Source: a virus
Lineage: Duplodnaviria > Caudoviricetes
Length of the DNA: 64,000 bases
Reading direction: 5' to 3' (one strand)
Virus record (IMG/VR): IMGVR_UViG_3300043427_003220
Span: 1 to 64,000 of that record
The position numbers and the translations under genes are program-made. The notes beneath the pieces are model-generated. The model did not search any database. It was given only the letters and a program-made list of their open reading frames with translations, and was not told the DNA's origin. This document shows, in pieces, positions 2,711 to 57,547 of this stretch (within the stretch, counting starts at the first letter, position 1; every line of letters starts with the position of its first letter).

Positions 2711-2737
2711 TAAAGGTTTTTTGCTGACCTCCGATAT
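2711..2737 (+). promoter_or_regulatory. Sigma-28 (FliA-type) promoter P1
   Basis: TAAA-N15-TCCGATAT; AAGGAGG and ATG 2778 downstream. Confidence 0.8.
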
Positions 2738-2777
2738 GTCTTATGTAAGACAGGAAACTAACACCAAGGAGGCTCCC

Positions 2778-3023
2778 ATGAGTACAGCAGAATTTCTCCA
2801 AAGCTACCTTGAGTCTTTTGAAACACAAGAAGACGGTTACAAAGATAGCCTTTGGGTCAAGGCTATCAAAGTCATGGCTATTCCAGAAGCCATGGAAGTG
2901 ACTGAAGAGTCTCCTGACTCCTTTGACAGCGGCATTAGGCTGCTGTTCAAAGATGGCAGTTGCCTCTACATTGGCAACCCACGCCAGTCAGCCTTCGCGG
3001 GCTTCAGCTATGTGATTGACTGA
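2778..3023 (+). CDS. Hypothetical acidic protein
   Basis: AAGGAGG RBS; lies between promoter P1 and a terminator. Confidence 0.75.
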   Translation: MSTAEFLQSYLESFETQEDGYKDSLWVKAIKVMAIPEAMEVTEESPDSFDSGIRLLFKDGSCLYIGNPRQSAFAGFSYVID

Positions 3024-3027
3024 CTCC

Positions 3028-3058
3028 AGCCCGCCCAAAAGGCGGGTTTAATTTTTTT
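3028..3058 (+). terminator. Rho-independent terminator
   Basis: AGCCCGCC-caaaa-GGCGGGTT followed by T-rich tract. Confidence 0.8.
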
Positions 3059-3059
3059 C

Positions 3060-3086
3060 TAAAGTTATTATTCTTAGCTCCGATAA
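3060..3086 (+). promoter_or_regulatory. Sigma-28 promoter P2
   Basis: TAAAGTTA..: TAAA-N15-TCCGATAA; GGAGG then ATG 3108. Confidence 0.85.
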
Positions 3087-3107
3087 GAATAGTAATGGAG
3101 GTGATGT

Positions 3108-3608
3108 ATGAGAAACAATTGGGCACAAAGACTGGCTTCTGCATTCAAGCACCCTGTTCAAGATTATGTTTTTGTTGAACAGTCTGAAGGTGAGTCTTCA
3201 TGTGCCTGTGGGCACCCCATCAAGAACATCTTCACTGTTGCCTGCAATGGCCACACTGTCCAATTGGGCAGTGAGTGCATTGAGAACTACACTGAGCTTG
3301 AAAGCATTCAGGTTCAAGTCAAGGCCGCTGAAGAGCGCCGCAAAGCAGAAGAGAAGGCTCATCAAGAGCATCTCCAGACCAAAGAACTTGAGTCACTCAT
3401 TAATGAGTACAATGAGCTGCTCAAGCCATTTAAAGAACAAGTCGCCAAGAGACAGCGCATTGATTATATGGTTTGGATGTACTGCGCAGGCAAGAAAGGC
3501 TACTCTATTAAGAAGCTCAAGACCCTCAAGGGCAAGATTAAGGCAGTCCAAACTGCCATCAAAGAACTCAAACTGGCTATCAAACTTGCGCAGGAGGACG
3601 TGGCATGA
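3108..3608 (+). CDS. Hypothetical Zn-binding protein with coiled coil
   Basis: CACGHPIK...LGSECI motif; GGAGGT RBS. Confidence 0.75.
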   Translation: MRNNWAQRLASAFKHPVQDYVFVEQSEGESSCACGHPIKNIFTVACNGHTVQLGSECIENYTELESIQVQVKAAEERRKAEEKAHQEHLQTKELESLINEYNELLKPFKEQVAKRQRIDYMVWMYCAGKKGYSIKKLKTLKGKIKAVQTAIKELKLAIKLAQEDVA

Positions 3609-3739
3609 AGATAAATATAGCTATTGCTACGGCAATTGTGATTGGAATGCTGATTCAATTGGCGGCTATAATTGCTTTGGCCGTTTATGCACCGATTTGG
3701 CTTTCCGTTCCTTTGATTGTATTAATGATTGCTTTTTAA
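3605..3739 (+). CDS. Small membrane protein (44 aa, not in ORF track)
   Basis: MKINIAIATAIVIGMLIQLAAIIALAVYAPIWLSVPLIVLMIAF; AGGAGG RBS; ATGA overlap with upstream stop. Confidence 0.7.
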   Translation: MKINIAIATAIVIGMLIQLAAIIALAVYAPIWLSVPLIVLMIAF

Positions 3740-3749
3740 GGAGATTCTT

Positions 3750-4034
3750 ATGCGCTTTACGTATACAACAGATATTATTGGCGGACAGCCGGTAACGACT
3801 ATTCAAGAAACTGCCGGCGTGTTTTCTGGCTATACAGCGGAGCAAGTGGCGGTTGTCGCTGAAAACCTTTATCCAAACTATCAGTCTCGTAATATGTCTA
3901 ATATCTTTTCTGATATTTATTTCAACTATTGCCTCAGAAAGACTCTCGAAGGTCAGCCCATTCCAAATGAATATCTATCTAATAATATTAGACAAAGTGT
4001 AAATGATAGCGATTTGCTCGAAGAAAATGATTGA
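3750..4034 (+). CDS. Hypothetical protein
   Basis: AAGGAG RBS before ATG 3750. Confidence 0.65.
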   Translation: MRFTYTTDIIGGQPVTTIQETAGVFSGYTAEQVAVVAENLYPNYQSRNMSNIFSDIYFNYCLRKTLEGQPIPNEYLSNNIRQSVNDSDLLEEND

Positions 4035-4059
4035 CAGTCGCGCTAATAGCAGATAACTT
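4031..4059 (+). promoter_or_regulatory. Sigma-70-like promoter
   Basis: TTGACA-N17-TAACTT upstream of AGGAGG and ATG 4083. Confidence 0.5.
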
Positions 4060-4082
4060 ACCACTTAGGAGGTAGATTTATC

Positions 4083-4373
4083 ATGATTACAGGACTTTTT
4101 GCAGCAGGGCTTTTGGCGATGTTTGTGGGTCTTTCAAGCCGCACTCCAGAGGTAGATAATACCAATACCCAATACTGCGTAGCTGCTCCTACTCGTTCCA
4201 ATCCAAAACAAGAGCGAACAGTCACTATAGATGAGCTAGTTGTTGACTCGCGCTGCCCACAAGGTGCTCAGTGCATTCGTCAAGGCGAACTCAAAGTAGT
4301 TAAGAACTGCTCTAAAGGCACAATGACTACAGAGCCAACCAAATCATCACTATCAGAACGGAAATCAAAATAA
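4083..4373 (+). CDS. Exported/membrane-anchored Cys-containing protein
   Basis: Hydrophobic N-terminus; DSRCP..A.CI..G motif; AGGAGG RBS. Confidence 0.65.
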   Translation: MITGLFAAGLLAMFVGLSSRTPEVDNTNTQYCVAAPTRSNPKQERTVTIDELVVDSRCPQGAQCIRQGELKVVKNCSKGTMTTEPTKSSLSERKSK

Positions 4374-5281
4374 TGCTAAAGTACATAGCTTTGGCGGCAT
4401 CGGCTCTATCTCTGAGTGCTACAGCACAAGAGGCAATAGAGCTGACTCCGCCAGTGTGTCTACAGCCAAATATTAACTTTTGGCATGACGTATATACAAA
4501 ATATACAAGACACGACATCATTGTTTACAACCAAAAGACAATGGAAGTCTACAACGTCTACCCACGCCCAAAGGGAAGCAAAAAGACAATTAAAAAGTAT
4601 AAAAGACACTTATTACATAAATATGTAAAGCTAATGCCCAAAGAGAAAAAGAACATTGCAGTCAAGACAGGGGCACGAGGCTTCTTTGAGAGAGGCTTTG
4701 AGAGAATGCACGAGCATTACCCCAAGATAGTCAAGAAGCTAGAGCAACAAGGAATGCCACACCAAATAGCCTTCTTGCCGTTCGTAGAGTCTTCGTACTC
4801 CTATAAAGCCACTAGCCCAGTCGGAGCAGTAGGCATGTGGCAAATCATGCCGGCAACAGGCAGACTCTTTGGAATCAAGAAGAGAGCAAGGCTTAGAGAC
4901 AATAAGGTAGCCACCGATGTAGCCATCAAGCTCCTTAAGTTTAATTACGAGATGTTGGGAGATTGGACTTTGGCTATCAATGCCTATCATTCCGGCACCG
5001 GACGACTCTTAAAAGCATCCAACATGGCAAATTCAAAAAACATTTGTGAAATACTCAACTATCTTGACGAAAATGACGTTACTATTAAGGGGTACAAGTT
5101 CTATAGCAGAAACTATGTAGCTCAATTGTTTGCTATTGACAAGGCAGTGACGGAAAGGCTAAACCCTCACGTAGAGGATGAAGCCGAAGAAATAGAAGAG
5201 GGGGTTCAAAATGAGTTTGAAGAGAAAGCTGGAGATGCAACTGGATTTGAGGAGTCCGACAGGGAAGACACTGCACCTTGA
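4373..5281 (+). CDS. Lytic transglycosylase (SLT/MltD-like) with signal peptide
   Basis: LPFVESSY..A.SPVGAVGMWQIMPATG, W.LAINAYHSG; N-terminal signal peptide. Confidence 0.9.
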   Translation: MLKYIALAASALSLSATAQEAIELTPPVCLQPNINFWHDVYTKYTRHDIIVYNQKTMEVYNVYPRPKGSKKTIKKYKRHLLHKYVKLMPKEKKNIAVKTGARGFFERGFERMHEHYPKIVKKLEQQGMPHQIAFLPFVESSYSYKATSPVGAVGMWQIMPATGRLFGIKKRARLRDNKVATDVAIKLLKFNYEMLGDWTLAINAYHSGTGRLLKASNMANSKNICEILNYLDENDVTIKGYKFYSRNYVAQLFAIDKAVTERLNPHVEDEAEEIEEGVQNEFEEKAGDATGFEESDREDTAP

Positions 5282-5615
5282 AGATGTAAAAAGCCTTAGG
5301 TCTTTACGCATTCATGACGCAGGGGATGCAGACAATATCTTTTTGGTTGACGTAGTAGACTTGGGTGGCAACCTTCTTCAAAACTACACATGTGGTTTTG
5401 AGTGCGTTAGTCTTATTTGCGCTATGTTGTATTCAGAAGGTGACGCGGAAGACAAAACCCAAGTAACTGTTTCTTTTGAAGCCCTTGTTAATGCCTTGAC
5501 TATGTCCCGTAATGCGGGTTATACAGATGCAAGCAAGGGTCTTCTCGAAGATGATACGGAAGAGGAAGCTTTGCAAGAGTATATGAACCGCGAAACTAAT
5601 GTTACTTTGAACTGA
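5211..5615 (+). CDS. Hypothetical protein
   Basis: GAGGGGG RBS; operon context. Confidence 0.6.
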   Translation: MSLKRKLEMQLDLRSPTGKTLHLEDVKSLRSLRIHDAGDADNIFLVDVVDLGGNLLQNYTCGFECVSLICAMLYSEGDAEDKTQVTVSFEALVNALTMSRNAGYTDASKGLLEDDTEEEALQEYMNRETNVTLN

Positions 5616-5622
5616 GGCTATT

Positions 5623-6183
5623 ATGAAAGTATCAGAAGAGGCGCTCAATCATCTGAAGTCGTTACAAGTAGACCCTACCAAGTTGTCTGAAGAAGAATAC
5701 TTCATGGCAACTCATATTCAGATGCCTAGACTTATCTACAGGGGCCCTAACGCTAATCCCCTGCCTGCATACCAAACAAAGCAGTCAAGTTGCTTTGACG
5801 TCTTAGCTGATGAGTATGTAACTATTCAGCCAAAGTCGTATGTAGTAATCAGGACTGGCCTCTATCTGACTATGGAAGATGCCGCCCACTTCATCAATCT
5901 TAACCCCGCAGTCATGAATCTAGCTCTAGTCCTTAGAGAGCGTTCTGGCTTGGCGGCCAAAGGTATTGGTTTAGGTGCGGGTGAAATCGACAGAGATTAT
6001 CTCATTGAAAATAATTCAGAGAACGAAATTAAAGTCATTCTTAGGAACTTTTCCGAAGTTCCACTCGAAGTCAAAGCTGGAGATAGAATCTGTCAGGCTA
6101 AGTGGGAGCTAGTTCTTAAAGACCCGTTTCTTGAAACTAAGAACCATAAGCGCATTGGCGGGCTAGGAAGCACAGGCACATGA
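5623..6183 (+). CDS. dut: Trimeric dUTPase
   Basis: RSGLA, GEIDRDY, GDRICQ and R.GGLGSTG motifs. Confidence 0.92.
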   Translation: MKVSEEALNHLKSLQVDPTKLSEEEYFMATHIQMPRLIYRGPNANPLPAYQTKQSSCFDVLADEYVTIQPKSYVVIRTGLYLTMEDAAHFINLNPAVMNLALVLRERSGLAAKGIGLGAGEIDRDYLIENNSENEIKVILRNFSEVPLEVKAGDRICQAKWELVLKDPFLETKNHKRIGGLGSTGT

Positions 6184-6572
6184 AGACTAAGAAAATTCCC
6201 AAAGACTCAGGACAGCCATTGTTTCAAGTCTCTCCGGAAGTGCGAGAGATAAACAATGTGCCCACTTCATGGAAGAAGCTAGTCTTGTATGTTTTTGAGG
6301 AAAAGTTGACTCATAAGTCGATTCCAACTCAATATATTATTGGATATGATGCTTTGGTAGATAATCCAATTCCTTCAAATCTTTATTACGACGGACTTTT
6401 TGAAACGACTTATGCAGGTCGTCGCAGAATTAAACCAGACGAAGAGTATCTATTTGTTTTAACTAAAGAAAATAAATTCCGTTCTATTCATTTTAGTCAA
6501 AAAACCCTTGAAAAATGGATACTTACAAAGACAATAATTGAAAAAGAAGAAATTCAATCAATTCTAGCTTGA
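6180..6572 (+). CDS. Hypothetical protein
   Basis: ATGA overlap with dut stop. Confidence 0.65.
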   Translation: MKTKKIPKDSGQPLFQVSPEVREINNVPTSWKKLVLYVFEEKLTHKSIPTQYIIGYDALVDNPIPSNLYYDGLFETTYAGRRRIKPDEEYLFVLTKENKFRSIHFSQKTLEKWILTKTIIEKEEIQSILA

Positions 6573-6637: not shown

Positions 6638-6646
6638 TGATAAAAT
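6638..6646 (+). promoter_or_regulatory. Extended -10 promoter candidate for the sheath operon
   Basis: TG-A-TAAAAT about 40 nt before ATG; dyads upstream (TTAACAA-aa-TTGTTAA at 6589..6604). Confidence 0.5.
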
Positions 6647-6685: not shown

Positions 6686-9505
6686 ATGACAATAGCGTTT
6701 TCGGTAGGCGGGTCACGAGTTGTTACCCCCGGTGTTTATTCAGTATTTAAAGTGCAAGATTCATTGCTCAACGTAGTTGCTGCGGCAAGAAATGTTCTTC
6801 TTATTGGCGAAGCTTCCGAAGGCGTCCCTGGAAACTTGCTTGACCCAACAACTGCATTTTTTACTGACTACCCCACAATGCAGGCTTTTTTTACTTCGGG
6901 TTCAGTTGTAGACGCTGCTCGCCAACTCTTTACCGTGCAGCCTTCCGCTGTATTCACTGGTTCCGTTGGCCGCGTTTATGTTCAACAAACTAACCAAGCA
7001 ACTCGCGCAGAAAAAGCAATTGCGTCTCCCTCTGCTTACGGCAAGGTGGTTGCAACTAAGTTTGGCGAGTCAGGAAATTTTGCTAAGTCACAAATTGTGG
7101 CTTCTGCAGAAGCTCTTCCTTCTGTTTCATTTCAAGTTCTTCCTCTTTCTGTAAATATGGAAGCTGCAGTTTCAGGCGTTCAGTCTGCGGGCACCGCTGC
7201 TATGACATTTGCAGGAGTTGAGAGCTTTGCAAGCAACCTTTCAACCCTTTTGGGCGCCAAGGCCACAGTGTCAGGCGGAACTCTTCAAGACGTAGTTCCA
7301 ACTGGTGCTGACCTGACTCTCGCTGTTTCGGGTAATGATGTGGTCGTATCAAGCTCTATTGCTTGGAACAGCCTTCCTAAAACAGGCGAAGTTGCAATCA
7401 TTCCTCACAGCTCTGGCCTTGTAGGTGCTACCGACAAAAATACTGGCACTTATGTTGTTAAGGCTGCCACCTCAACAACTGTAACTCTTGAAAAGGTCCG
7501 TCAAATGGACAACTCAGGAGCTAGCGCAGTTGCTTGGACTGCTCCAGAAGCTGTTTCTACTCCTGTTACAGCAGGTACGGCTCCATTCACATACGCAACT
7601 GGTGAAGTCATCTTTGTTAGCCCAGTTTCCGTTGAAGTTACTGAGGCTGCTAAAGAGGGCGCAGGCGCTTCTCTTGAGTTGGCCGCTGCTTCCGCTTCCC
7701 TCTTGGGAGTTGCTGCCGTTGCTCGTATGTCAGCTCGCTCAAATCTTCTCAACGCAGCCAATGCCTCATTTGGAACCATTTCGGCTGCTGCTTCCGCAGA
7801 CCAACTCACCGTCTCTCTTGGAGCGGGCGCAGTTTGGATTGCAGCCCCAAAGCTAGGCGATGTTGTTTACGTTTCTCCTTCTTCTCCGGTTGCAGGAGCT
7901 TCTAAGCAAAACGTCGGCCTTCATATTGTATTGTCAGCTTCTCCTTCTTCGGTTGTTTGCAAGAGACTTGACGGCGGTTCCGCTGCTTCCGTTTCTTCAA
8001 CTGCCCTTGCTGGAAAAGAAGATGCTTTGCAGGCTCTTCCTGCATTGGTCAGCTCCTCGGTTGCTGCCAAGAAAGCTGTTTCTTCAAAAGAAGCTCAAGT
8101 GTCAATGAATAGCCTCAATACCGTCACTGGAGAGAGATTCCCTTCAGACAAAATCGGCGGAAAGGTTGTCCTTGAAATTTCTTACTCAGGCACAGCAGCG
8201 GCTGCTAAAGTTTCAATCGACACAAGCCGTCGCGTTAAACTTGTTGCCGATACAGATGAGGTTGTACTCCCAACTCTCAAGTACCCAACACTTGCTGCTC
8301 TAGCTGAAAAGATTAGCTCACTCACAGGATGGGCTGCTCGCGTTGTTGATGCTGGAATGAGTTCAGCTTCTCCAGCTGTGTTGGATATGGTTGATGAAGT
8401 TGGTTGCTTGTCACTTACAAGTGAGCACGCATTCTCAGGCCGCCTCAAAAATGACTACTCAGCTTGGACTTCATTCTTTGCTGGTACGGTTTCCATTCTT
8501 GACTTCGTCGCTGGTGCGCGTCCAGTTAAAGCTGGTCTACCTGCGGGCGAATCTTCACAGTCATTCTTGCTTGGTGGAGCTAAAGGCGCTACTTCAAATG
8601 CAGATATTCAAGCTGCTCTTGACGCTGGCCTCAAAGTTCCAACTGTTCAAGTTCTCCCGCTCTTCTCACGCGACGCATATCTTGATGCTGCTGATGGCCT
8701 AACTGAGCAAGAGTCAACTTACTCTATCGACTCAGTCCACGCCGCTCTTAGAGCACACGTTGCTACTGGATGGTCAAGCGCGGTTCGTCGTGAACGCTTT
8801 GGTCTAGCTTCATTCTTCGGCTCGTTCGAGGATTCAAAAGCTAAGGCTCAGGCTATGAACTATGAAAACGTCTCAATGACATTCCAGCTTGCTCGCGCTA
8901 CGGGCGCAGACGGTAATGCTCAGTGGTTCCTTCCATGGATGCTTCAGTGCTGCATGGCTGCAGGACGTTCACAGGCAGTTCTTGGAACTCCTTTGCTTCG
9001 TAAGTCATTCAACGTCCTCGACGTTAAGCACATTCCAGAGTCATCCGTCTACTCTGACACGTTAACACGTGACTTTGACCCCGCAAGCAGAACGATGGTC
9101 GATGAAGCTATCGAAGCTGGCCTTTTGACCATGGGTGTAGTTGAAGGTGCAGGACTCCGCTTGGTGTCTCCAGACCTCTCAACCCGCAGCCGCGTCAATG
9201 ACCCGAAAGCTTGGGTGTATGAGCGCAACAACGTATCGTTTATCTTTATTGAAGTTATCCAAACTCTCAGAAGCGTTCTTGAGAACTACATCGGCGAGCG
9301 TACTACGGACGTTACCACGGCTGAAGTTGCTTCTACAGTTGTCAATGTTCTTTCATCGTTTGTTACTAGCGGCGCAATCGTTGCATTTAATCGCTCACCG
9401 CTCGTAACCAACCTTGGAAATGGCTATGCTGTGCAAGTGCAGGTTCGCCCTGCTGAAGCGCTTGAGTTTATTTCACTTGATGTAACTGCAACGAGAAATC
9501 TTTAA
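6686..9505 (+). CDS. Contractile tail sheath protein
   Basis: N-terminal VVTPGVYS..LLIGEASEG; C-terminal LENYIG..VQVRPAEALEFI; precedes tube genes. Confidence 0.9.
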   Translation: MTIAFSVGGSRVVTPGVYSVFKVQDSLLNVVAAARNVLLIGEASEGVPGNLLDPTTAFFTDYPTMQAFFTSGSVVDAARQLFTVQPSAVFTGSVGRVYVQQTNQATRAEKAIASPSAYGKVVATKFGESGNFAKSQIVASAEALPSVSFQVLPLSVNMEAAVSGVQSAGTAAMTFAGVESFASNLSTLLGAKATVSGGTLQDVVPTGADLTLAVSGNDVVVSSSIAWNSLPKTGEVAIIPHSSGLVGATDKNTGTYVVKAATSTTVTLEKVRQMDNSGASAVAWTAPEAVSTPVTAGTAPFTYATGEVIFVSPVSVEVTEAAKEGAGASLELAAASASLLGVAAVARMSARSNLLNAANASFGTISAAASADQLTVSLGAGAVWIAAPKLGDVVYVSPSSPVAGASKQNVGLHIVLSASPSSVVCKRLDGGSAASVSSTALAGKEDALQALPALVSSSVAAKKAVSSKEAQVSMNSLNTVTGERFPSDKIGGKVVLEISYSGTAAAAKVSIDTSRRVKLVADTDEVVLPTLKYPTLAALAEKISSLTGWAARVVDAGMSSASPAVLDMVDEVGCLSLTSEHAFSGRLKNDYSAWTSFFAGTVSILDFVAGARPVKAGLPAGESSQSFLLGGAKGATSNADIQAALDAGLKVPTVQVLPLFSRDAYLDAADGLTEQESTYSIDSVHAALRAHVATGWSSAVRRERFGLASFFGSFEDSKAKAQAMNYENVSMTFQLARATGADGNAQWFLPWMLQCCMAAGRSQAVLGTPLLRKSFNVLDVKHIPESSVYSDTLTRDFDPASRTMVDEAIEAGLLTMGVVEGAGLRLVSPDLSTRSRVNDPKAWVYERNNVSFIFIEVIQTLRSVLENYIGERTTDVTTAEVASTVVNVLSSFVTSGAIVAFNRSPLVTNLGNGYAVQVQVRPAEALEFISLDVTATRNL

Positions 9506-36855: not shown

Positions 36856-36867
36856 GGAGTCACTGTC

Positions 36868-37328: not shown

Positions 37329-37337
37329 GAGCTTACT

Positions 37338-38295: not shown

Positions 38296-38298
38296 GAT

Positions 38299-39201
38299 AT
38301 GGATTTCTTTAAGTTTTTGCGAGTCACTGAAGCAGCAGCTATTGCTAGTTCTAAGTGGATTGGCAAGATGGACAAAAATGCAGCAGATGGAGCTGCTGTA
38401 GATGCCATGAGGGCAGAATTTGATTTTATGGATATTCAAGGCGTTGTGGCTATCGGTGAAGGCGAACTCGACGAAGCTCCTATGTTGTACATTGGCGAAA
38501 AGTTAGGGACAGGCCGTGGTGACAAGTATGACATTGCTGTAGACCCACTAGAGGGGACTGAGTTGGTTGCTAAGGGTAAACCCAATGCTATCTCTGTTAT
38601 GGCTGTAGGAGATTGGGGTTGCCTCATGAGAGCGCCTGATTGCTATATGGATAAGATAGTTGTGGGTTCAAACGCTAAAAGTGCTCTAGTAAGTCTATTC
38701 AAGACTCCTGAGCAAAACCTTAAAGCAATTGCCGACACAATGAGGAGGCCAGTCAAAGACCTGACTGTTTGTGTTTTAGATAGGCCAAGACATATTGATT
38801 TGATTAAAGAAATTACCCAATTAGGGGCTAAAATATCACTTATCAGTGACGGCGACGTACTCGCTGCTATTGGTGTGTGTATGGGCAAGTACGATGTGTT
38901 GATGGGTATTGGCGGCGCTCCAGAGGGTGTTGTATCGGCTGCAGCAGTCAAGAGTCTGGGTGGAAGGATTCTAGGACGTTTAGTATTAGATACATCAGAA
39001 CTCAAAGAACGAGCCGCCAAGATGCACAAACGCGAAGATATAGAGTACGATACGGTAGATATGGCTCATGGTGAACATATAGCCTTTATTGCGACGGGAG
39101 TGACAGACTCTTTCTTGTTGAACGGAGTCATCCACAATGAGGTCCATTCAGTTATACTGACTCCAAAAGAAAGAAGATTCATAAAGACAACTTATGGCTA
39201 A
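38299..39201 (+). CDS. glpX: Class II fructose-1,6-bisphosphatase
   Basis: RVTEAAA, GEGELDEAPMLYIGE, DIAVDPLEGT, APDCYMDK, LDRPRH, SDGDV, GIGGAPEGV, ATGVT. Confidence 0.96.
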   Translation: MDFFKFLRVTEAAAIASSKWIGKMDKNAADGAAVDAMRAEFDFMDIQGVVAIGEGELDEAPMLYIGEKLGTGRGDKYDIAVDPLEGTELVAKGKPNAISVMAVGDWGCLMRAPDCYMDKIVVGSNAKSALVSLFKTPEQNLKAIADTMRRPVKDLTVCVLDRPRHIDLIKEITQLGAKISLISDGDVLAAIGVCMGKYDVLMGIGGAPEGVVSAAAVKSLGGRILGRLVLDTSELKERAAKMHKREDIEYDTVDMAHGEHIAFIATGVTDSFLLNGVIHNEVHSVILTPKERRFIKTTYG

Positions 39202-41476: not shown

Positions 41477-41809
41477 ATGATTGGCCACGTAAAAGATGTA
41501 ATTAAGGGAAAAGCTAAGCTTTTTTCAAAGCGTTCTTCTAGGTGGCCATCATTACGCAAATCTTATTTAGAGACTAATAACTCATGTGCAGCTTGCGGCT
41601 GCACAGAGTTTTTAGAAGTGCATCACATTGAACCGTTTCATGAAAATCCTTCCTTAGAGCTAGAAGCAAGTAATCTTATTACGCTGTGCGACAAACCTGG
41701 CAAAGATAATTGTCATCTTGAGATTGGCCATCTTGGCAGCTTTAAGAGCAAAAATCCGAATGTTCGAGAAGATGCAGCCAAAGCCCTTCAAGAAAAAATT
41801 AAAGAATAA
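41477..41809 (+). CDS. HNH endonuclease (packaging-associated type)
   Basis: CAACG...LEVHHIEP...NLITLC....CH; close to terL. Confidence 0.88.
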   Translation: MIGHVKDVIKGKAKLFSKRSSRWPSLRKSYLETNNSCAACGCTEFLEVHHIEPFHENPSLELEASNLITLCDKPGKDNCHLEIGHLGSFKSKNPNVREDAAKALQEKIKE

Positions 41810-41826
41810 ATTCCACAGTCCGATGA
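41800..41826 (+). promoter_or_regulatory. Sigma-28 promoter P6
   Basis: TAAAG..: TAAA-N15-TCCGATGA; GGGGGTGG then ATG 41847. Confidence 0.65.
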
Positions 41827-43330: not shown

Positions 43331-45325
43331 ATGTCAGACGATAAGAAAATTACTATCAAAATAGCAGACGGCATAAGTCCAGACGAAAACATCAACGTCA
43401 ACTCGATTGATGATGTGACTGGAATCATTAAGCAGCGCCTTGGTCGCACAATGCTATCTAAGTCCGATGTCCAAAAAATCAACGAAGAAGAGTTCAAAAA
43501 GCGCAAATACAAACAATCTAAAGTCAAGTTTGGTTCACGCTTTAATACTCGCATTGGTGTAGGCGACTCTCTTTCAAAAGAGCCCAAGCGCCTCTCAGAC
43601 GCTGAACTCAAAGAGCTTTCATTGATTGACCCATATATTGGCGCAATCATCAACACCCGTGTTGCCCAAATTTCTAGCTTTGGTGCCCAATCTGAGTCTA
43701 AGTTTGACAAGGGTGTTCGCGTTATCGACCTAGAAGAGATTCGCCGTGAAGACTTTGAGACAGAAGAAGCTTTTGAGCGCGAACTCAAACTTCGTGAAGC
43801 GGAAAAGAAAGCCATCCTTGAGTGGGTACTGAAGTGCGGCACGTCGGACAAAAGAATCCTTGATGAGATGTATGAAGCCGCCGACCCTACTTTCAAGCAT
43901 TGTTCTTTGAAGGACTACTTTCAGGCTCAGTCCCGTGCATTGTTGACGTTTGGCCGTAGTGCTAGACAGAACCTTCTAAATGCTGATGGGACTATCTGCG
44001 CTTTTAGGCCAACTCCTATTGAGACTATCAAGCAAGTTAAGTTTGGCTCTAAGGTTCATGTAACCGCTGTCTCTGATATTGCTCAGCAGTCAGAAGTAGA
44101 CGCTGAGCAGTACAACAAGATTCCTGTAAACGACAAGCCCATCGCTTACGTACAAGAAGTAGACGGCGTTCAGACTGGTTTCTTTACTGAAGAAGACTTG
44201 AAAGTTGTTTACTATCAAGTTCAATCATTCCTTGACCTCAATGGTTACCCAATGGGGCCTATTGAGTTTGCTTTGTTCTTGGTTTACATTCATCAGCACA
44301 CATTGAGTTACCTCCGCAATCAGTTTGTAAAGGGTCAGCTCTCAAAGAGCATGATTGTCATTAGGCCAACCGACCCATCAGTCAAAATTTCTGATGAAGA
44401 TATTGAATCTTTTAAGATGGAGATTCAAAACCTAGCCACAAGAACAGACAATAGTGCTGTCATTCCAGTCATTGGTGGGCCGGTTGAGCTTGAACTTATC
44501 AAGACAACCGAGACTCCAAAAGATATGGAATGGATGCAGGTCGAGCAAACGGTCATTCGTGCATTGTGCTCTGCCTTTCAGATTTCCCCTACAGAAGCTG
44601 GCTTTGGACAGTTGGGCGATACTGCAGGCATGGGGCAAGGTTCACGTGACTACGAACTTGTTCAAGGTGAAGAGCGCGGCCTAAGACTCTTAGTAGATAT
44701 CTTGATGGAAGACATCAATGATGCCGTCTATCAAAACTTCCCCGAAGCCAAGAAGCGTTACAAGGTAGCAGCATTCGGCGTTGGTAATGAGACACGTGAA
44801 GGCGTGTTGCAACGCCAAGTCCAAGAGCTACAGACGACAGCAACTCTAAATTCGCTGTTCAGCGATTCTGACAAAAATAGACAATTTGAGTATGGCGGCG
44901 ACGTTCCTCTAGCCCCAGCATTCCACCAAAACGTGGCTCGCTATATGACTTATGGAAAGTTTATGGAAACGTACTTTGGAATGGAAGGTGCAAGTAAGCG
45001 CCCAGAGTTAGACTTTATTATTGACCCCAACCTCAATCAAGCCTATCAGCAACTCAAGATGGGTATGCAGCAGATGCAGGCTCAGCAGCAGGCATTGGGA
45101 TTGCAGGGCCAACAGATGCAGCTTGAGATGCAACAGGCTCAGATGCAACAGGCGGCTCAAGGCGGACAACCACAACAGGGTCAACCTCAACAACAGCCAG
45201 AAGAGCAGCAGAAGTCAGAAGACGTTGAGCTTCAAAAAGCATGGGAAGAGTCTATGAAGTCTAACCACGAAAGCCTATTGAAATCATGGCTTAGGATTCA
45301 TGACTCAAAGATTGATGAAGAATAA
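43331..45325 (+). CDS. Portal protein
   Basis: AIINTRVAQI, GYPMGPIEFA, KDMEW..ALCSAFQISPTEAGF, RGLR.L; Q-rich C-terminus. Confidence 0.88.
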   Translation: MSDDKKITIKIADGISPDENINVNSIDDVTGIIKQRLGRTMLSKSDVQKINEEEFKKRKYKQSKVKFGSRFNTRIGVGDSLSKEPKRLSDAELKELSLIDPYIGAIINTRVAQISSFGAQSESKFDKGVRVIDLEEIRREDFETEEAFERELKLREAEKKAILEWVLKCGTSDKRILDEMYEAADPTFKHCSLKDYFQAQSRALLTFGRSARQNLLNADGTICAFRPTPIETIKQVKFGSKVHVTAVSDIAQQSEVDAEQYNKIPVNDKPIAYVQEVDGVQTGFFTEEDLKVVYYQVQSFLDLNGYPMGPIEFALFLVYIHQHTLSYLRNQFVKGQLSKSMIVIRPTDPSVKISDEDIESFKMEIQNLATRTDNSAVIPVIGGPVELELIKTTETPKDMEWMQVEQTVIRALCSAFQISPTEAGFGQLGDTAGMGQGSRDYELVQGEERGLRLLVDILMEDINDAVYQNFPEAKKRYKVAAFGVGNETREGVLQRQVQELQTTATLNSLFSDSDKNRQFEYGGDVPLAPAFHQNVARYMTYGKFMETYFGMEGASKRPELDFIIDPNLNQAYQQLKMGMQQMQAQQQALGLQGQQMQLEMQQAQMQQAAQGGQPQQGQPQQQPEEQQKSEDVELQKAWEESMKSNHESLLKSWLRIHDSKIDEE

Positions 45326-45326: not shown

Positions 45327-45354
45327 TAAAGTTCGTTCCCGTGTGTTCCGATAA
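45327..45354 (+). promoter_or_regulatory. Sigma-28 promoter P7
   Basis: TAAAGTTC..: TAAA-N16-TCCGATAA; GGAGGT then ATG 45376. Confidence 0.75.
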
Positions 45355-45375: not shown

Positions 45376-45675
45376 ATGAGTAAAGCAGTAGAAGCAAGAG
45401 AACTAGCAGACAAGTTTAATGACCCTGAGCAAAAAGACAAAAGATTGCAGGGTCTTATGGATTTTATTGTTGATATTCTTTTGGAAGATGCTATTAATGC
45501 TGCTAAGCGCGGTCTTTATGACATGTCTTACAAAATGGGTGACATGGAAAAAGAGCGTATCCGTCTTGCTAACCTCCAAGAAGAAGAAGTTACTAAAAAA
45601 GTAATTGATAAGATGAATCAGCTTGGATTTCAGGCTGGTTTTAGCCGTCCCTACATCAACGTCTCATGGAAATAA
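45376..45675 (+). CDS. Hypothetical protein
   Basis: GGAGGT RBS. Confidence 0.72.
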   Translation: MSKAVEARELADKFNDPEQKDKRLQGLMDFIVDILLEDAINAAKRGLYDMSYKMGDMEKERIRLANLQEEEVTKKVIDKMNQLGFQAGFSRPYINVSWK

Positions 45676-45902
45676 ATGAGGCGCTCGACCAGCTTGTTGA
45701 GTTGGTCAAAAAAATCCTTTCAAAAAAGAAAACAAAAGTAATTGGAATCAGAGACTTAGAGAGGGCTGCTCAAAAGGCAGACATTCAAATAGTTCTTGAC
45801 GAAGACACTGTGGCTGAGTTATGTTTTAGGCTACGTGACGAGAATGTGATTGCCCGCCCACAAGGAGCTGGCGTCTTTCGCCACATTAGAATTGTGGAGT
45901 AG
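45666..45902 (+). CDS. Hypothetical protein
   Basis: Overlapping operon ORF. Confidence 0.6.
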   Translation: MEINEALDQLVELVKKILSKKKTKVIGIRDLERAAQKADIQIVLDEDTVAELCFRLRDENVIARPQGAGVFRHIRIVE

Positions 45903-45904
45903 TT

Positions 45905-46366
45905 ATGTCTGAACATAAAAAAACAGTAGAAATGCTACTTGGCCTCAAAAGCAGACTGATTGCTGGTTCTAAGTCAGGCTATAGACGCCGTCATCCTAAA
46001 AACCTTGTTTGTTTTAATGCCAATGTTGTCGTCGAGGGGTTGGGAAAAGTTTGGTATGGCGACTTAGATATTACCTTGGATGAGGCTTTATTGGTTAGGC
46101 TGGCTCAGCTTCTTGAGAGAGAAGTTTATGTGTTGCAAGAGATGGACGGACGGTTTGAGAACGAAGATAACCCCAAAATCGAAAAAGCTGTATATAAAGT
46201 TGCCAAGATACCTTTTATGAGTTGGCATATTTATGAAGGTGAAATTCGCATTGAGTATTACGAGAGAAGCAAGAAAAGCGGCGTCATTCAAGAGAAGTCT
46301 AAAAGACAAATAGATAAAATTTTGGAAAGACTCAAAGAGCAAAGCGGAAAAGCGGCTTTTGTTTAA
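45905..46366 (+). CDS. Hypothetical protein
   Basis: GGAG RBS; VWYGDLDIT motif. Confidence 0.7.
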   Translation: MSEHKKTVEMLLGLKSRLIAGSKSGYRRRHPKNLVCFNANVVVEGLGKVWYGDLDITLDEALLVRLAQLLEREVYVLQEMDGRFENEDNPKIEKAVYKVAKIPFMSWHIYEGEIRIEYYERSKKSGVIQEKSKRQIDKILERLKEQSGKAAFV

Positions 46367-46397
46367 CTGAAAATATACTTTTCTTTATGGTGTTTAA

Positions 46398-47009
46398 ATG
46401 AAAGTAAATCTTCCTACGGTGACTCTTATTATTGCTGACTGTGTTGACTACGATAGAGCCAAACTGTCTTTTGACCACTGTAGAGCCGTCTGCAACTTCG
46501 GCGAAGCTAAACTATTAACTCACTTCGACACTCAAGACTCCAATATAGTAAAAATCCCTCAAATTAAGTCTATTGAAGAGTATTCTCATTTTATGATTAA
46601 AGACTTGGCTAACTACTTTGACACTCAGCATGTCTTAGTGGCTCAGTGGGATGGGTTTGTTTGGAAGCCAGAGTTGTGGGACAACAAATTTCTTCAGTAC
46701 GACTACATCGGGGCACCATGGCCTGAGAGTGTTCTGTTTAAGGGAGTGCCCAAGCATTTCAATGTAGGTAATGGAGGATTTTCTCTTAGGAGCAAAAGGC
46801 TTCAAGATTTTCTACGAGATGACGATAATATTACTATGCACAGGGCAGAAGACGTGGCAATATGCCAGCTTAATAGGGCGTACTTGGAAGCCAAGGGGTT
46901 TACGTTTGCTCCGTTTGAGCTAGCTAAGAAGTTTAGTTGGGAATGCTTGGAAATGAGTCCAGCATTCGGAGTTCATGCTAGGTTGAGGTTGGTTAAGAAA
47001 GGGGAGTGA
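46398..47009 (+). CDS. DUF5672-family (glycosyltransferase-like) protein
   Basis: QWDGFV..P..W...FL.YDYIGAPW, VGNGGFSLRSKRL, AEDV.IC, FAP...A.KFS.E, FGVH. Confidence 0.8.
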   Translation: MKVNLPTVTLIIADCVDYDRAKLSFDHCRAVCNFGEAKLLTHFDTQDSNIVKIPQIKSIEEYSHFMIKDLANYFDTQHVLVAQWDGFVWKPELWDNKFLQYDYIGAPWPESVLFKGVPKHFNVGNGGFSLRSKRLQDFLRDDDNITMHRAEDVAICQLNRAYLEAKGFTFAPFELAKKFSWECLEMSPAFGVHARLRLVKKGE

Positions 47010-47011
47010 TT

Positions 47012-47254
47012 ATGAGAGCATTGCTGTTACTCTTATTGGTTGGTTGTGCGACTGCTCCAAAGCCTGATAAGCCAGACTTGTGTGCGACTGTTTATGACCC
47101 TCATCTTTGCCTTATCACTATTGACAGTACGACATTTGCTGCTCACGGCAGTAACCGCTGTGTTGCCATTAGAAAGTTGAAAAAAACTCTTGAAGAAAGA
47201 GGGCACAATCCTCTAATAGTAGAAAAGGCGGAATGTGGGCGAGTTTATGAATAA
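47012..47254 (+). CDS. Small lipoprotein
   Basis: MRALLLLLLVGC lipobox. Confidence 0.75.
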   Translation: MRALLLLLLVGCATAPKPDKPDLCATVYDPHLCLITIDSTTFAAHGSNRCVAIRKLKKTLEERGHNPLIVEKAECGRVYE

Positions 47255-48908: not shown

Positions 48909-49090
48909 AAGTCTACGCAATTGTTGAAAATTCTGGCCCATTTACTGTCCTTCTTCATTTGACTGTTTATCGCACAGAAGAGCAGGCTCAAGAGGCCCTT
49001 GAACAAATCAATAAAGATTACGTAGAGTGGTCAAAAGATACAGAATTTGTTTCTAAAGCAAAAGTTATTGAGTTAGAAGTTGCGGACTAA
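48905..49090 (+). CDS. Hypothetical protein
   Basis: GGGAG RBS; MKVY.I...IELEV pattern. Confidence 0.68.
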   Translation: MKVYAIVENSGPFTVLLHLTVYRTEEQAQEALEQINKDYVEWSKDTEFVSKAKVIELEVAD

Positions 49091-49114
49091 AGTTTTTCCT
49101 TGTCCTGCCGATAA
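49088..49114 (+). promoter_or_regulatory. Sigma-28 promoter P8 (perfect consensus)
   Basis: TAAAGTTT-N11-GCCGATAA. Confidence 0.9.
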
Positions 49115-49254
49115 GCCTTATGTTATGAGTGAGAATTATGAGTCTTGTCCACTATAGACAAACTACTTTGCCTATAATAAAAGCCACTTTCACTATAAAC
49201 AAATTTCATACTCATGAAATTTAGATTACGAACTAATGAAATTATGACTCTTTA

Positions 49255-49282
49255 TAAAGTTTTATCAATAAGAATCCGATAA
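49255..49282 (+). promoter_or_regulatory. Sigma-28 promoter P9
   Basis: TAAAGTTT-N12-TCCGATAA; AAGGGGG then ATG 49304. Confidence 0.78.
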
Positions 49283-49303: not shown

Positions 49304-49474
49304 ATGTTCTACACTATCACAGCCACAATTGATGATGAGGTCCACGTAGTTGCCACAAACGTCCCAGACGACGAGCTTGAAGGAGAGCTTCAACATCTAA
49401 CCCGCAGGCACGAGTTTAAGAACGTGACTCGGTTTGAGATAACTGAAGAGCCTGTTTTTAGTCTATCGCCTTAG
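49304..49474 (+). CDS. Small acidic protein (56 aa, not in ORF track)
   Basis: MFYTITATIDDEVHVVATNVPDDELEGELQHLTRRHEFKNVTRFEITEEPVFSLSP; strong RBS. Confidence 0.7.
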   Translation: MFYTITATIDDEVHVVATNVPDDELEGELQHLTRRHEFKNVTRFEITEEPVFSLSP

Positions 49475-52957: not shown

Positions 52958-53881
52958 TTACCAAATCTTTAATTGATTCAAAGCGTCTATAAACTTTTTG
53001 CTAGTCATTTTCGTAACGCACTCAGCAATTTCCATCTTGCGAGGACAATTAGCAAAGTTCCAATAGTTTAACGACCAATCGGACTCGCAAAAGCTGCAGG
53101 CAATGTTAGGAACAACAGCAATTGTTGGAACGCGGCCTCTATAGGGAATACGAAGGTCTGGCTTGATGGTTGTAAAGCCACAGACAACAGGAGTTCTTGT
53201 TGTCCAAGCAATATGTATAGGTCCGCCGTCCATCCCCACAATAGCTTTGGCTTGGCTCATAATAGTGGCAAGTTCTCTGAATGTTGTATCGTCTCTAAGG
53301 TCTACTCCAAATCCTGGGTACTCAAAGTCACTTGCAGCAAGGCTGGTTTTCCAAATAGAAATAGCTCCTCTCTTGCCCACATAAACAGGAGTCAAACCCT
53401 TGGAATAAACATATTCAGCAATCTTGGTGATTTCTTCTGGCAAGATTGTGCGTTGCTTGTCTCTATAAGTTGTGATGATAATGACTGACTTTGAAAAGTC
53501 TACGCCATAGCGATTGACATCTGCTGGCAAAAGAGGAACATACTGAGCATCAACGTCGTCAATAACGCGCCCCAATAAACCAATAGATGCGTATTGAGTT
53601 AACTTCATTCGAGATGGAGTTAGCTTACAAACATGATTGCCAACTCCAAGCATATTTAAGTGCCTGATTGAATAACCTGCAGGATACTGAGCGGTTACCT
53701 CGGTAAACTTACTTTCAGGAACAAAATGAAAGAAATCTTTAAAGTCTGGGTAAATTCCAACAAGATAATCATCTGTTCTTCTGTGGAAGTTTTCAATAGC
53801 GAACTTTAAAGAAGGAGCTGCGGCTATTAAATCGCCCACGGCAGCAGAGTTCAAACAATATACGACTTTATCTGCAATCAT
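52958..53881 (-). CDS. Glycosyltransferase family 9 (heptosyltransferase-like)
   Basis: AVGDLI, DLRDDTTFRELATIM..A..IVGMDGGPIHIA, C-terminal CxxC..CPR..EC. Confidence 0.85.
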   Translation of the reverse strand: MIADKVVYCLNSAAVGDLIAAAPSLKFAIENFHRRTDDYLVGIYPDFKDFFHFVPESKFTEVTAQYPAGYSIRHLNMLGVGNHVCKLTPSRMKLTQYASIGLLGRVIDDVDAQYVPLLPADVNRYGVDFSKSVIIITTYRDKQRTILPEEITKIAEYVYSKGLTPVYVGKRGAISIWKTSLAASDFEYPGFGVDLRDDTTFRELATIMSQAKAIVGMDGGPIHIAWTTRTPVVCGFTTIKPDLRIPYRGRVPTIAVVPNIACSFCESDWSLNYWNFANCPRKMEIAECVTKMTSKKFIDALNQLKIW

Positions 53882-55382: not shown

Positions 55383-55391
55383 TGATAAAAT
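55383..55391 (+). promoter_or_regulatory. Extended -10 promoter candidate
   Basis: TG-A-TAAAAT about 28 nt before ATG 55419. Confidence 0.5.
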
Positions 55392-55418
55392 ATAACAAGT
55401 ATTTCATAGGGGTTTCAG

Positions 55419-56201
55419 ATGGGACTAAAAGTCTTTGGGTTGGGAGCGGTACAGTCAGTCGACAAACAAGGCGAACTGATTGAAATTGCTAATATTGATA
55501 CATCCAACCTACGCATGATTACAGACGAACACAACTCCGACCAAAAGGGCGCGTGGTGTATTGTTGGCGGAATTACCGCTCACAAGAAAATTATGTCTGA
55601 AAAAGATTGCGAGACTCCTCGCCAAAAAAAATGCTGGGATTTGGTAAAAGTCCCCTATCTTTATGTTGAAGGAGAACTTGCCGATGGACACCCAAACGCA
55701 GATGCTGCTGCTGCACTTATTCGCTATACCGCTGCTAATCCTGATATTCCCCTAAAAATTGGTATGTCAATCGAAGGGCTTATCTTAAAACGCGGCGGGC
55801 CAGAAGGGTCAACAGAGCATAAAGTCATCAAGCAATCTTCCGCCGACGCCATTGCTATTACAGCTAAACCTTGCAATCCACAAGCTCAGATGTTTCCAAT
55901 GAACGACCTTATGAAGTCTTCCATTGAACCACCACCTGCAGAATACCTGCAGAAATTCATGAAGTCTGAAGGCGCTACGGAGTCTTTTAAGCATCGACCT
56001 GAAATTCGTCTTCAGCAGAAGCTTCAGCAGTTGAAAAAATCTTTGGAAGATGTTTTAAAGGGTGGTACATGCTCTGTTAAGTGCTGGAGCTGCGGCGATA
56101 CCGAACGCATGTTCAAGGCATCACGAGAGTGGAGTAATCGCTGCAAAAAATGCGGAGATGCTCGCAGTATGAAAGACATTTGGAACGCTTTAAACCAATA
56201 A
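55419..56201 (+). CDS. Prohead maturation protease with C-terminal zinc ribbon
   Basis: VDKQGE, EH, YLYVEGEL, GMSIEG, AITAKPCNP; CWSC..CKKC tail. Confidence 0.8.
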   Translation: MGLKVFGLGAVQSVDKQGELIEIANIDTSNLRMITDEHNSDQKGAWCIVGGITAHKKIMSEKDCETPRQKKCWDLVKVPYLYVEGELADGHPNADAAAALIRYTAANPDIPLKIGMSIEGLILKRGGPEGSTEHKVIKQSSADAIAITAKPCNPQAQMFPMNDLMKSSIEPPPAEYLQKFMKSEGATESFKHRPEIRLQQKLQQLKKSLEDVLKGGTCSVKCWSCGDTERMFKASREWSNRCKKCGDARSMKDIWNALNQ

Positions 56202-56210
56202 GAGGTTGAT

Positions 56211-56588
56211 ATGCCAAGTATTTTTTCTGATAATGGTGTAGCTGGTCTAAAATTAGATTACGGTGATGCCACAAAAGCTGTTCTCGCTGCTGCTACAGAA
56301 CTAGCACCTGCAATTTTAATGACATTGGCAGACCAATCTCACAAAGTCATTTTTCATAATGATTCCGACCAAGAAGTGCAAATTTTGGTTTCCAATCCGT
56401 CTAGCTTAGACGGCGTTTGGCAAAAACTATTGTGCTTGGCTCCTGCGCAGTCTCTACCCATTGAAAATTATGCGGGGCCAATGTGCCTATTTCCTCCGCG
56501 CACTAAATTTGCAGCATATTCATTAGGTTCTCACGTAGGAGTTGGCGACCCTGATGGTAAGTGCAGAATTTACGTGTGGCTAGGATAA
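56211..56588 (+). CDS. Hypothetical (possibly virion) protein
   Basis: GAGGT RBS; beta-sandwich-like composition. Confidence 0.62.
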   Translation: MPSIFSDNGVAGLKLDYGDATKAVLAAATELAPAILMTLADQSHKVIFHNDSDQEVQILVSNPSSLDGVWQKLLCLAPAQSLPIENYAGPMCLFPPRTKFAAYSLGSHVGVGDPDGKCRIYVWLG

Positions 56589-56591
56589 ATT

Positions 56592-56620
56592 AAAGGCTCC
56601 TTTCGGAGCCTTTTTTATTT
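56592..56620. terminator. Terminator between convergent genes
   Basis: AAAGGCTCC-tttc-GGAGCCTTT followed by TTTATTT. Confidence 0.85.
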
Positions 56621-57157
56621 CTTGCTGAGTCTTGCCACTTCTTGGACAATCACATCAAAGACAGATGTCTTCCTCTCGTCAGCCATCTCAAGCAAGCGTT
56701 TCAGGATAAGCTCAAGGGTTTTATTGGCCACGCTCTTATCGTAATCGGCTTGGCTAGGGCCGCTAATGCGCCAATCGCCGGTCGTAACAACTTGACTCTC
56801 TTCTTTCAAGACTTTAGAAAGAACTTCTGGTTTCTTTGGTTTTACTTTTGATGGCTTTTTGACGGGTCTATTATGAACACTCACAAACACATCTGGTTTA
56901 GGGGTGGGCTTGGCAACGGATACTTTAGGCTTTTTGCCTGATTTCCTAGAGGCAAACTCCGCCCTTAATGCGCTCAGGATTGGCAACTCTTCAGGGGTGT
57001 CTTGTTTGTTTTGTTCTTGGTCAAGCGCCTGCTTAGCCTCTTCGAGAGAAGAGAATCGTCCCAAGTAAACCCTCTTAGAGTCACGAATAATTCTTACAAG
57101 ATACTTACGCTCAGTTGCGCTATAAGAAATGCCCTTAATACCAATTTTCATAATCAT
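56615..57157 (-). CDS. AP2-domain DNA-binding protein
   Basis: GIKGISY....KY.VRI..D.KRVYLGRF...EEA..A. Confidence 0.75.
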   Translation of the reverse strand: MIMKIGIKGISYSATERKYLVRIIRDSKRVYLGRFSSLEEAKQALDQEQNKQDTPEELPILSALRAEFASRKSGKKPKVSVAKPTPKPDVFVSVHNRPVKKPSKVKPKKPEVLSKVLKEESQVVTTGDWRISGPSQADYDKSVANKTLELILKRLLEMADERKTSVFDVIVQEVARLSKK

Positions 57158-57417
57158 TTCCCTTCCTTAAAGAATCTTTTAGTTACAGAACACCATTCGC
57201 CATACATTCCATCACGCGCAAAACGTCTATTGTCATTTGCAGAATCACCAACATGAAGATGAGCTAGGCCCAACGCATCTAACCCATGAACAGCCGTATT
57301 GAACATATGAGGCGCATAAGTCGAACGCCCGTCAGCATACCTTTGAGCCATCCACAACGTATCCCTAATTATCTCTTTAAGTTTTTCATTTTCTTCTTTG
57401 AGTTTCTTCATCGTCAT
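57154..57417 (-). CDS. Hypothetical phage protein
   Basis: WMAQRYADGRSTYAP motif; GGGGG RBS. Confidence 0.65.
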   Translation of the reverse strand: MTMKKLKEENEKLKEIIRDTLWMAQRYADGRSTYAPHMFNTAVHGLDALGLAHLHVGDSANDNRRFARDGMYGEWCSVTKRFFKEGK

Positions 57418-57499
57418 GGCGGCCCCCACTCATATTCATAAGTAACAATGGCAACACTATCATAAGCGAACCGACCAGCACAAGAGCAAAATTAAACAT
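57386..57499 (-). CDS. Small membrane peptide (37 aa, not in ORF track)
   Basis: MFNFALVLVGSLMIVLPLLLMNMSGGRHDDEETQRRK; GGAGGTG RBS. Confidence 0.6.
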   Translation of the reverse strand: MFNFALVLVGSLMIVLPLLLMNMSGGRHDDEETQRRK

Positions 57500-57519
57500 A
57501 GCTCACCTCCATACCATTC

Positions 57520-57547
57520 TATTCGGTCTAGAATGGAAAAACCTTTA
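57520..57547 (-). promoter_or_regulatory. Sigma-28-like promoter P10 (weaker)
   Basis: TAAAGGTT-N12-ACCGAATA on minus strand, about 20 nt before ATG 57499. Confidence 0.5.

Follow-up and report, generated by a model that had tools for sequence, protein, structure and literature searches.

Class 3 flagellar and chemotaxis promoters are read by sigma-28 (FliA; SigD, WhiG), and their consensus in Escherichia coli is TAAAGTTT-n11-GCCGATAA (PMC2859248). Candidate promoters of the same build occur in a stretch of viral DNA of 64,000 nucleotides, here called the window, which forms the opening 64 kb of one 162,747-bp IMG/VR contig (IMGVR_UViG_3300043427_003220) with 42% G+C. The contig is the closed genome of a large, uncultured freshwater myovirus that is apparently virulent. 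Its sites resemble class 3 promoters in both boxes, in the length of the spacer and in their placement before a transcription unit. They differ in the genes that follow, which are flagellar in class 3 and accessory, replication and probably packaging genes in the phage, and in an extra G kept after CGATAA (14 of 15 seed sites), which the E. coli class 3 consensus lacks.

Among cellular systems the closest parallel is found in Bdellovibrio bacteriovorus, in the attack-phase regulon, where a sigma-28-type promoter (TTAAG-N16-CCGATA, present in 92 of 140 mapped promoters) acts as a general switch for many non-flagellar genes (PMC3627812). That regulon is cellular and its transcript starts have been mapped, whereas the phage sites are known from sequence and carry no link to a predatory host. 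Among phages, the nearest case in the literature searched is the prophage flagellin gene fliC_P, which is reported to be a likely recruit of the host FliA/sigma-28 programme (bioRxiv 10.1101/2023.11.30.569447). Both cases place a phage-carried gene behind a promoter of the host sigma-28 type. However, fliC_P is a single flagellar gene of lysogenic conversion in a temperate phage, whereas here about 18 promoters would serve much of the non-late programme. No description of a lytic phage programme on sigma-28 promoters was found in the full-text literature searched, which lacks most subscription journals.

Textbook lytic phages start on the host housekeeping sigma factor and later bring their own factors, as in the temporal cascades of SPO1 (gp28 and gp33/34) and T4 (gp55). 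These cascades share with the present genome the use of separate promoter classes for separate gene sets. By contrast, SPO1 and T4 encode their own sigma factors and their promoters are not known to resemble any host class, whereas here no sigma factor was detected and the promoters are equivalent to those of a host class. In T4-type phages, the promoter/stem-loop cassettes (PeSLs) carry sigma-70-type early promoters; the sites described here are of the sigma-28 type, and a role in recombination is only a candidate for them. The likeness to PeSLs lies in short repeated regulatory elements that border variable accessory genes (PMC2839356, PMC4122927).

Two-box sites in the window and in the genome

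The pattern TAAAG-N14-17-CGAT occurs ten times in the window, always on the plus strand, against a mean of 2.16 in dinucleotide shuffles, and none of 100 shuffles reaches ten. Nine of the ten matches are the plus-strand sites at 2711, 3060, 34556, 34987, 36458, 41800, 45327, 49088 and 49255, which a first-pass annotation made from the window alone had listed as sigma-28 promoters. Its account of their boxes and spacing proved accurate. The -10 octamer is TCCGATAA in four sites and GCCGATAA, GTCGATAA, GACGATAA, TCCGATAT and TCCGATGA in the others, the spacer between the octamers measures 11 nt in seven and 12 nt in two (45327 and 49255), and the site at 49088 equals the consensus at 16/16 positions. 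The tenth match (10093) overlaps a stop codon, a ribosome-binding site (RBS) and a start codon, and was counted as chance. Match scores are given throughout as positions out of 16 against the E. coli consensus.

An unsupervised k-mer count in 80 upstream regions returned both boxes, CGATAAG (10 against 0.70 expected) and TAAAGTT (12 against 1.76 expected), which rank among the top words other than the RBS. A two-block matrix, for which 15 clear sites served as the seed set, found 18 sites of at least 19 bits in the whole genome, on the plus strand at 2711, 3060, 34556, 34987, 36458, 41800, 45327, 49088, 49255, 65762, 136385, 154791, 155196 and 158172, and on the minus strand at 68584, 69661, 111936 and 124218. 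Those at 68584(-), 124218(-) and 136385(+) are absent from the seed set. Above 16 bits there are 20 hits, against a mean of 0.95 and a maximum of 3 in 20 mononucleotide shuffles, a count that is partly circular because the matrix derives from 15 of the same sites. When the order of the two boxes is swapped, as a control independent of the seed set, no site reaches 18 bits, compared with 18 in the true order, and a single one reaches 16 bits, compared with 21. Hits below about 18 bits fall within genes and look like noise.

The 18 sites match the consensus at 12-16 of 16 positions (median 14/16, with one site at 16/16), and their spacer is 11 nt long in 15 and 12 nt in three. Each of the 18 is directed at the gene that follows, and for 15 the distance from the end of the site to a called start is 10-60 nt, a placement for which 3.0% of positions would qualify (P = 1.1e-20). 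The earlier identification of a sigma-28 consensus is thereby upheld for a non-random promoter-like class that is properly placed and oriented, on the combined evidence of shuffles, k-mers, box swap and consensus match. The accompanying statement, which confines the genes headed by the sites to small non-structural ones, stands for the first gene of each unit, which is small and uncharacterized, but is too narrow for the units as a whole. In the window these hold an SLT transglycosylase, a dUTPase, a GlpX-type enzyme and a probable large terminase, and outside it a DnaB-like helicase and a replication-initiator-like protein. The remaining downstream genes are small unknowns and lipoproteins; a test for a flagellar regulon found no flagellar, motility or chemotaxis genes among the genes downstream.

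Relatives of the phage, represented by ten IMG/VR loci with portals 89-99% identical, carry the same class. Nine of the ten loci hold together 22 sites of at least 17 bits, 21 of them on the gene strand. At the site that follows the portal gene, an alignment of ten sequences (the phage and nine relatives) retains TAAAGTT in 10/10, with a variable spacer, and the -10 reads CCGAT in five, CTGAT in four and CCGGT in one. At other places in the relatives the flank and the two boxes persist, and the spacer and the downstream gene differ.

The signal extends well beyond this group. The exact 16-position consensus was found in at least 119 stretches of IMG/VR contigs, against 19 for a box-swapped control. 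Around the exact matches lie 75 more strong sites in 1.07 Mb (7.0 per 100 kb), compared with 3 in 0.18 Mb (1.7 per 100 kb) around the control loci. Four contigs examined in full, with a G+C content of 31-42%, contain 12, 11, 11 and 6 sites, and one of the four has 11 sites within 5 kb. No gene is common to the four contigs and the phage: 17 of 196 phage proteins match any of them and one matches two, the best shared protein without an assigned family resembling a family-9 glycosyltransferase. Dense two-box arrays were seen in L260 (G410) at 458-5037, in L258-L259 (G411) at 63448-73271 and in L253-L255 (G412) at 53721-82598. Lineage variants also occur, with a -35 of TCAAG or TTAAG in G411 and a -10 of GGCCGATA in G410.

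A different signal precedes the virion genes. In non-coding DNA the hexamer TAAAAT is present in 32 copies, each at most 150 nt ahead of a co-oriented gene and without a conserved -35. Most of the genes that follow it belong to the virion or to lysis, such as those for the head protein, the fibres and the lysozyme as well as large tail genes. One such copy (6641-6646, plus strand) stands 40 nt before a gene for a 939-aa protein (6686-9505). The others before co-oriented genes of the window are at 9517, 10826, 12720, 18524, 21213, 30832, 41174, 42058, 42305, 49518, 55386, 57557 and 63927, and 18 further places lie elsewhere in the genome. In its make-up this class resembles -10-only late promoters, and the sigma-28-type class, judged by its boxes, is distinct from the signal before virion genes. 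Classical sigma-70 pairs of -35 and -10 are not enriched in the scans made (329 against 369-436 in shuffles; in a second scan, 36 against 30.9 +/- 4.9), and only a few sigma-70-like matches are well placed.

The reader of the sites and rival explanations

The explanation favoured here, with moderate confidence, is that the sites belong to the sigma-28 (FliA/SigD/WhiG) type of promoter and that the host's sigma-28 holoenzyme reads them. Established behaviour of sigma-28 promoters suggests how they would work. Region 4 of the sigma factor would bind TAAAGTTT, the -10-recognising regions would bind (G)CCGATAA 11-12 bp downstream of the -35 box, and the transcript would begin a few bases past the -10, with a short leader that bears a strong GGAGG-type RBS. 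The eighteen promoters would start two kinds of unit, namely small, fast-changing accessory blocks and part of the replication set, while virion and lysis genes would lie behind TAAAAT without a -35. With sigma-28 promoters before the non-late genes and sigma-70 signals scarce, cells with active sigma-28 would be the only ones in which the non-late programme runs.

The host motility sigma factor is most likely borrowed, because neither a sigma factor nor an RNA polymerase of the phage was found. Six-frame searches with five models of the sigma-70 family (PF04542, PF04545, PF08281, TIGR02937 and TIGR02479) returned no match at E <= 10; TIGR02479, the FliA model, matched five of five bacterial genomes as a positive control. 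When the 170 called proteins were compared by hhalign with a five-sequence sigma profile, the best probability was 3.3%, and twelve Pfam/PHROG scans of 5-10 proteins each brought no sigma match. A regular-expression screen for sigma region 2 was uninformative, its patterns matching only an RpoD-like control and none of four FliA controls. No sigma factor was found in the contigs of five relatives (24-75% complete), and no FlgM-like anti-sigma factor in the phage. The multisubunit RNA polymerase models PF00623 and PF00562 had no match while their controls responded; the single-subunit (T7-type) model PF00940 had none either, but its control was silent and the result is uninformative. Polymerases of high divergence would escape such models. 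Sigma-like open reading frames (ORFs) of other motif-bearing contigs have no counterpart in the phage. A 79-aa protein (68536-68775, minus strand) aligned with a sigma-region-4-like ORF of another contig at E 0.007 and was set aside as spurious, the match lying in a charged, low-complexity stretch. The first-pass alternative, in which the phage encodes its own sigma-28 homologue beyond the window, thus finds no support, given that the genome is closed and that profile searches detect no match to the sigma-70 family. The lack of a gene common to the four motif-bearing contigs and the phage points to a conserved host factor.

Several observations weigh against a borrowed host factor. The CTGAT and CCGGT variants at the post-portal site mean that not every copy is strictly constrained, and the G kept after CGATAA, absent from the E. 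coli consensus, could mark a different reader. The sigma negatives are of limited power because the same profile methods missed the terminase of this phage, and about half of the proteins have no family. In addition, weak matches to sigma-70 factors of the extracytoplasmic-function (ECF) kind occur in 8 of 17 motif-clustered contigs (best 38.7 bits, none above the family cut-off) and in four of the five motif-clustered records that are at least 90% complete, so that some motif-bearing phages may bring their own reader. Finally, the host searches pointed to no lineage, and a fliA gene in the host is presumed; the sole RNA run consists of assembled contigs and is silent on transcript starts.

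Much of this evidence bears on the main rival, a reader encoded by the phage itself: a sigma factor diverged past detection, or a protein that re-aims the host sigma factor and is made early or injected together with the DNA. In that case the likeness to sigma-28 promoters would stem from the capture of a fliA-like gene by an ancestor, or from convergence. That profile searches overlook even the terminase of this phage, that around half of the scanned proteins lack a family, and that weak sigma-70-family matches appear in other motif-bearing contigs all leave room for such a factor. Against it, the five sigma models are silent even at E <= 10, none of the 170 proteins has an hhalign match, and no homologue of the sigma-like ORFs from the other contigs is present. 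Moreover, one complete contig (87.6 kb, 12 sites) is likewise devoid of a sigma match, and no gene unites all motif-bearing contigs. To our knowledge, divergent phage sigma factors (SPO1 gp28 and gp34; T4 gp55) read motifs unlike any host promoter, and judged by these examples it seems unlikely that a factor would keep both sigma-28 boxes and their spacing while losing detectable similarity. A phage-encoded reader is unlikely, with a chance that is nonetheless appreciable.

It is quite improbable that the 27-45-bp repeats are chiefly recombination handles for accessory cassettes, similar to PeSLs, with promoter activity secondary. Synteny blocks do end within 60 nt of 34556, 34987, 36458 and 49255 in some of five relatives, with several breaks at or adjoining 34556, 36458 and 49255, and many ends lie elsewhere. 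Accessory stretches are swapped between strains, as seen in metagenome contigs, and five sites are alike beyond the boxes (TTGAC in the spacer, CTTATGT past the -10). However, the two boxes and their spacing alone are kept over the 18 sites, and differing spacers are not what homologous-recombination handles need. The sites are also all gene-directed, lie at promoter distance from a strong RBS and share their two-box signal with unrelated viral contigs; recombination and promoter roles are in any case compatible. A motif without promoter function, arising by chance or composition in A+T-rich intergenic DNA or serving as the binding site of another protein at gene boundaries, is already disfavoured and very improbable. 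The shuffle and box-swap controls (18 against 0), the placement and orientation of the sites and their conservation in relatives while spacers drift all argue against it, and two boxes at a fixed spacing of 11-12 nt are the signature of sigma-type recognition.

A wider proposal, which we regard as plausible but tentative, builds on the reading by host sigma-28. The whole non-late programme (about 18 promoters, covering accessory, replication and perhaps packaging genes) would depend on host sigma-28, infection would be productive only when the motility or attack-phase sigma factor is free, and the same wiring would exist in several unrelated, uncultured phage lineages. If this is true, a phage whose programme rests on an alternative host sigma factor, one restricted to motile cells, would sense the state of its host in a new way, and abortive infection would be predicted in non-motile cells, fliA mutants and FlgM overproducers. 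It would also give a reason for a possible link between flagellum-dependent infection and sigma-28 activity. A phage that adsorbs to a working flagellum would meet the condition of free sigma factor automatically. The promoters match the E. coli consensus and are in that sense portable. Their spread in IMG/VR suggests an overlooked, general class of phage promoter, which predictors tuned to sigma-70 would miss.

Individual sites and their units

All nine strong sites of the window lie on the plus strand. The first (TAAAGGTT-n11-TCCGATAT, 2711-2737; 13/16) stands 37 nt before the gene 2778-3023, a unit closed by a terminator-like hairpin (CCCGCC...GGCGGG with a T run, 3030-3059, plus strand, recognized by eye) before the next promoter. 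The latter (TAAAGTTA-n11-TCCGATAA, 3060-3086; 14/16) heads the unit 3108-6572, which comprises small ORFs, the SLT transglycosylase (4373-5281) and the dUTPase (5623-6183).

Three sites follow one another closely in the middle of the window. The site TAAAGTTT-n11-TCCGATAA (34556-34582; 15/16) heads the gene 34614-34934 and persists as a small island of similarity in the relative L016; about 55 nt upstream of it a sigma-70-like TTGACA-n17-TACAAA can be recognized by eye. Next, TAAAGTTA-n11-GACGATAA (34987-35013; 14/16) heads the unit 35034-36473, composed of five small genes, two of which encode lipoproteins. Just upstream of this site GTCAATAGA is repeated four times within 52 nt (34927-34978), a word found 7 times in the genome against 1.8 expected; the repeats are possibly an operator or an upstream element. 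The third site, TAAAGTTT-n11-GTCGATAA (36458-36484; 15/16), coincides with a break of synteny with relatives and heads the unit 36522-41170, which includes the genes of the GlpX-type enzyme and the probable large terminase. This unit may be interrupted at 36795-36813, where a weak terminator-like hairpin lies.

The site TAAAGAAT-n11-TCCGATGA (41800-41826; 12/16) is followed by GGGGGTGGACTATG, and its orthologues in relatives keep both boxes with differing spacers. Directly 3' of the portal gene lies TAAAGTTC-n12-TCCGATAA (45327-45354; 14/16), at the head of the unit 45376-47254. The exact-consensus site TAAAGTTT-n11-GCCGATAA (49088-49114; 16/16) is followed by about 190 nt without an RBS-bearing ORF, about 140 nt of which (49115-49254) precede the next site, and for this reason it may give rise to a leader or a small RNA. 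That next site, TAAAGTTT-n12-TCCGATAA (49255-49282; 15/16), heads the gene 49304-49474, and a synteny block shared with relatives begins just past it.

A minus-strand site at 57547 had also been proposed by the first-pass annotation. The candidate (TAAAGGTT-n12-ACCGAATA, 57520-57547) does precede the GGAGGTGAGCTATG of a small membrane-protein ORF, but it is weak (12/16 and 9.1 bits) and a possible, not an established, promoter.

Two side observations concern the units and the sites themselves. Lipoprotein signal peptides with an LLVGC or LLIGC lipobox are present on four small proteins (35253-35627, 36135-36473, 37338-37940 and 47012-47254), and all four genes lie inside units headed by sigma-28-type sites. 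The five sites that are alike beyond the boxes (2711, 34556, 49088, 155196 and 158172) have in common a TTGAC-like word in the spacer and CTTATGT(AAG) after the -10, which in two of them forms a small palindrome, GACTTATGTAAGTC. Recent copying of a single cassette may account for the likeness, or else a conserved 5' leader.

Genome, cargo and host

Closure of the genome was established from a relative, whose 122-kb contig is collinear from 161024 directly into 930; therefore no sequence is missing between the contig ends. The termini carry an exact repeat of 127 nt, which is insufficient as proof of closure because an internal copy exists as well. The repeat derives from three tandem tail-collar fibre paralogues across the contig junction (114-905, 161081-161866 and 161906-162694), none of which is present in the relative G406.

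The virion genes include the portal (43331-45325), the major head protein (158790-160325), many tail-fibre genes and a protein with a sheath-initiator-like domain. Replication and repair are represented by a DnaE-type polymerase, a primase, a DnaB-like helicase, SbcCD, RuvC and a ribonucleotide reductase, and a GroEL-like protein and a GH24 lysozyme are also annotated. The proteins without a family in the Pfam and PHROG scans make up about half of those scanned. The probable large terminase (39194-41170) was recognized from protein-language-model features of the ESM-Atlas with a score of 0.99, and had been missed by Pfam, PHROGs and two six-frame searches. The GlpX-type fructose-1,6-bisphosphatase (38299-39201; Pfam E = 1.6e-111) has copies in relatives at 82% identity, and the version in L008 is 54% identical. 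No tRNA genes were found in the phage, and an Rfam scan of the window matched no family.

Unusual cargo comprises deoxyhypusine-synthase-like and alliinase/aminotransferase-like proteins, the GroEL-like chaperonin, a 'DNA transfer' protein like A1 of T5, a ClpX-like ATPase and a family-9 glycosyltransferase-like protein. The genes lie at genome positions 66939-67901, 155590-156555, 133642-135255 and 131913-133331, and in the window at 930-1844 and 52958-53881.

Searches of cultured phages by megablast and tblastn returned nothing close, the best cultured relative of the portal being that of Myxococcus phage Mx1 (24% identity over 72% of the query). Sequencing runs whose contigs contain DNA of the phage are freshwater, aquatic, aquaculture and soil metagenomes. 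The single RNA run covers short pieces of the phage, a coverage that weighs neither for nor against reading by host sigma-28.

The GlpX protein was also used in the search for a host. Among genome contigs its best match reaches 53% identity, with matches across many phyla, and in a quick tree of 90 rows, from which matches of fewer than 200 aligned residues (e.g. L007) were left out, the phage copies form their own long branch with no donor lineage. A DNA search with 20 kb of the phage against 401 Bdellovibrionota genomes matched 230; among the matches listed, all fall in glpX and none is spacer-like.

Weak hints suggest a Gram-negative, aquatic host. The GH24 lysozyme has no wall-binding domain, an SLT domain and a heptosyltransferase-like protein are present, and all matches of the tail-fibre searches, which are weak, are to phages whose hosts are Gram-negative and aquatic. 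The protein encoded next to the lysozyme, on its downstream side (genome 111062-111670; L003:7062-7670), starts with a membrane helix, continues with a long charged stretch and has a C-terminus ending in ...GFRVEF that by eye resembles that of outer-membrane beta-barrel proteins; it is possibly an unusual one-piece spanin.

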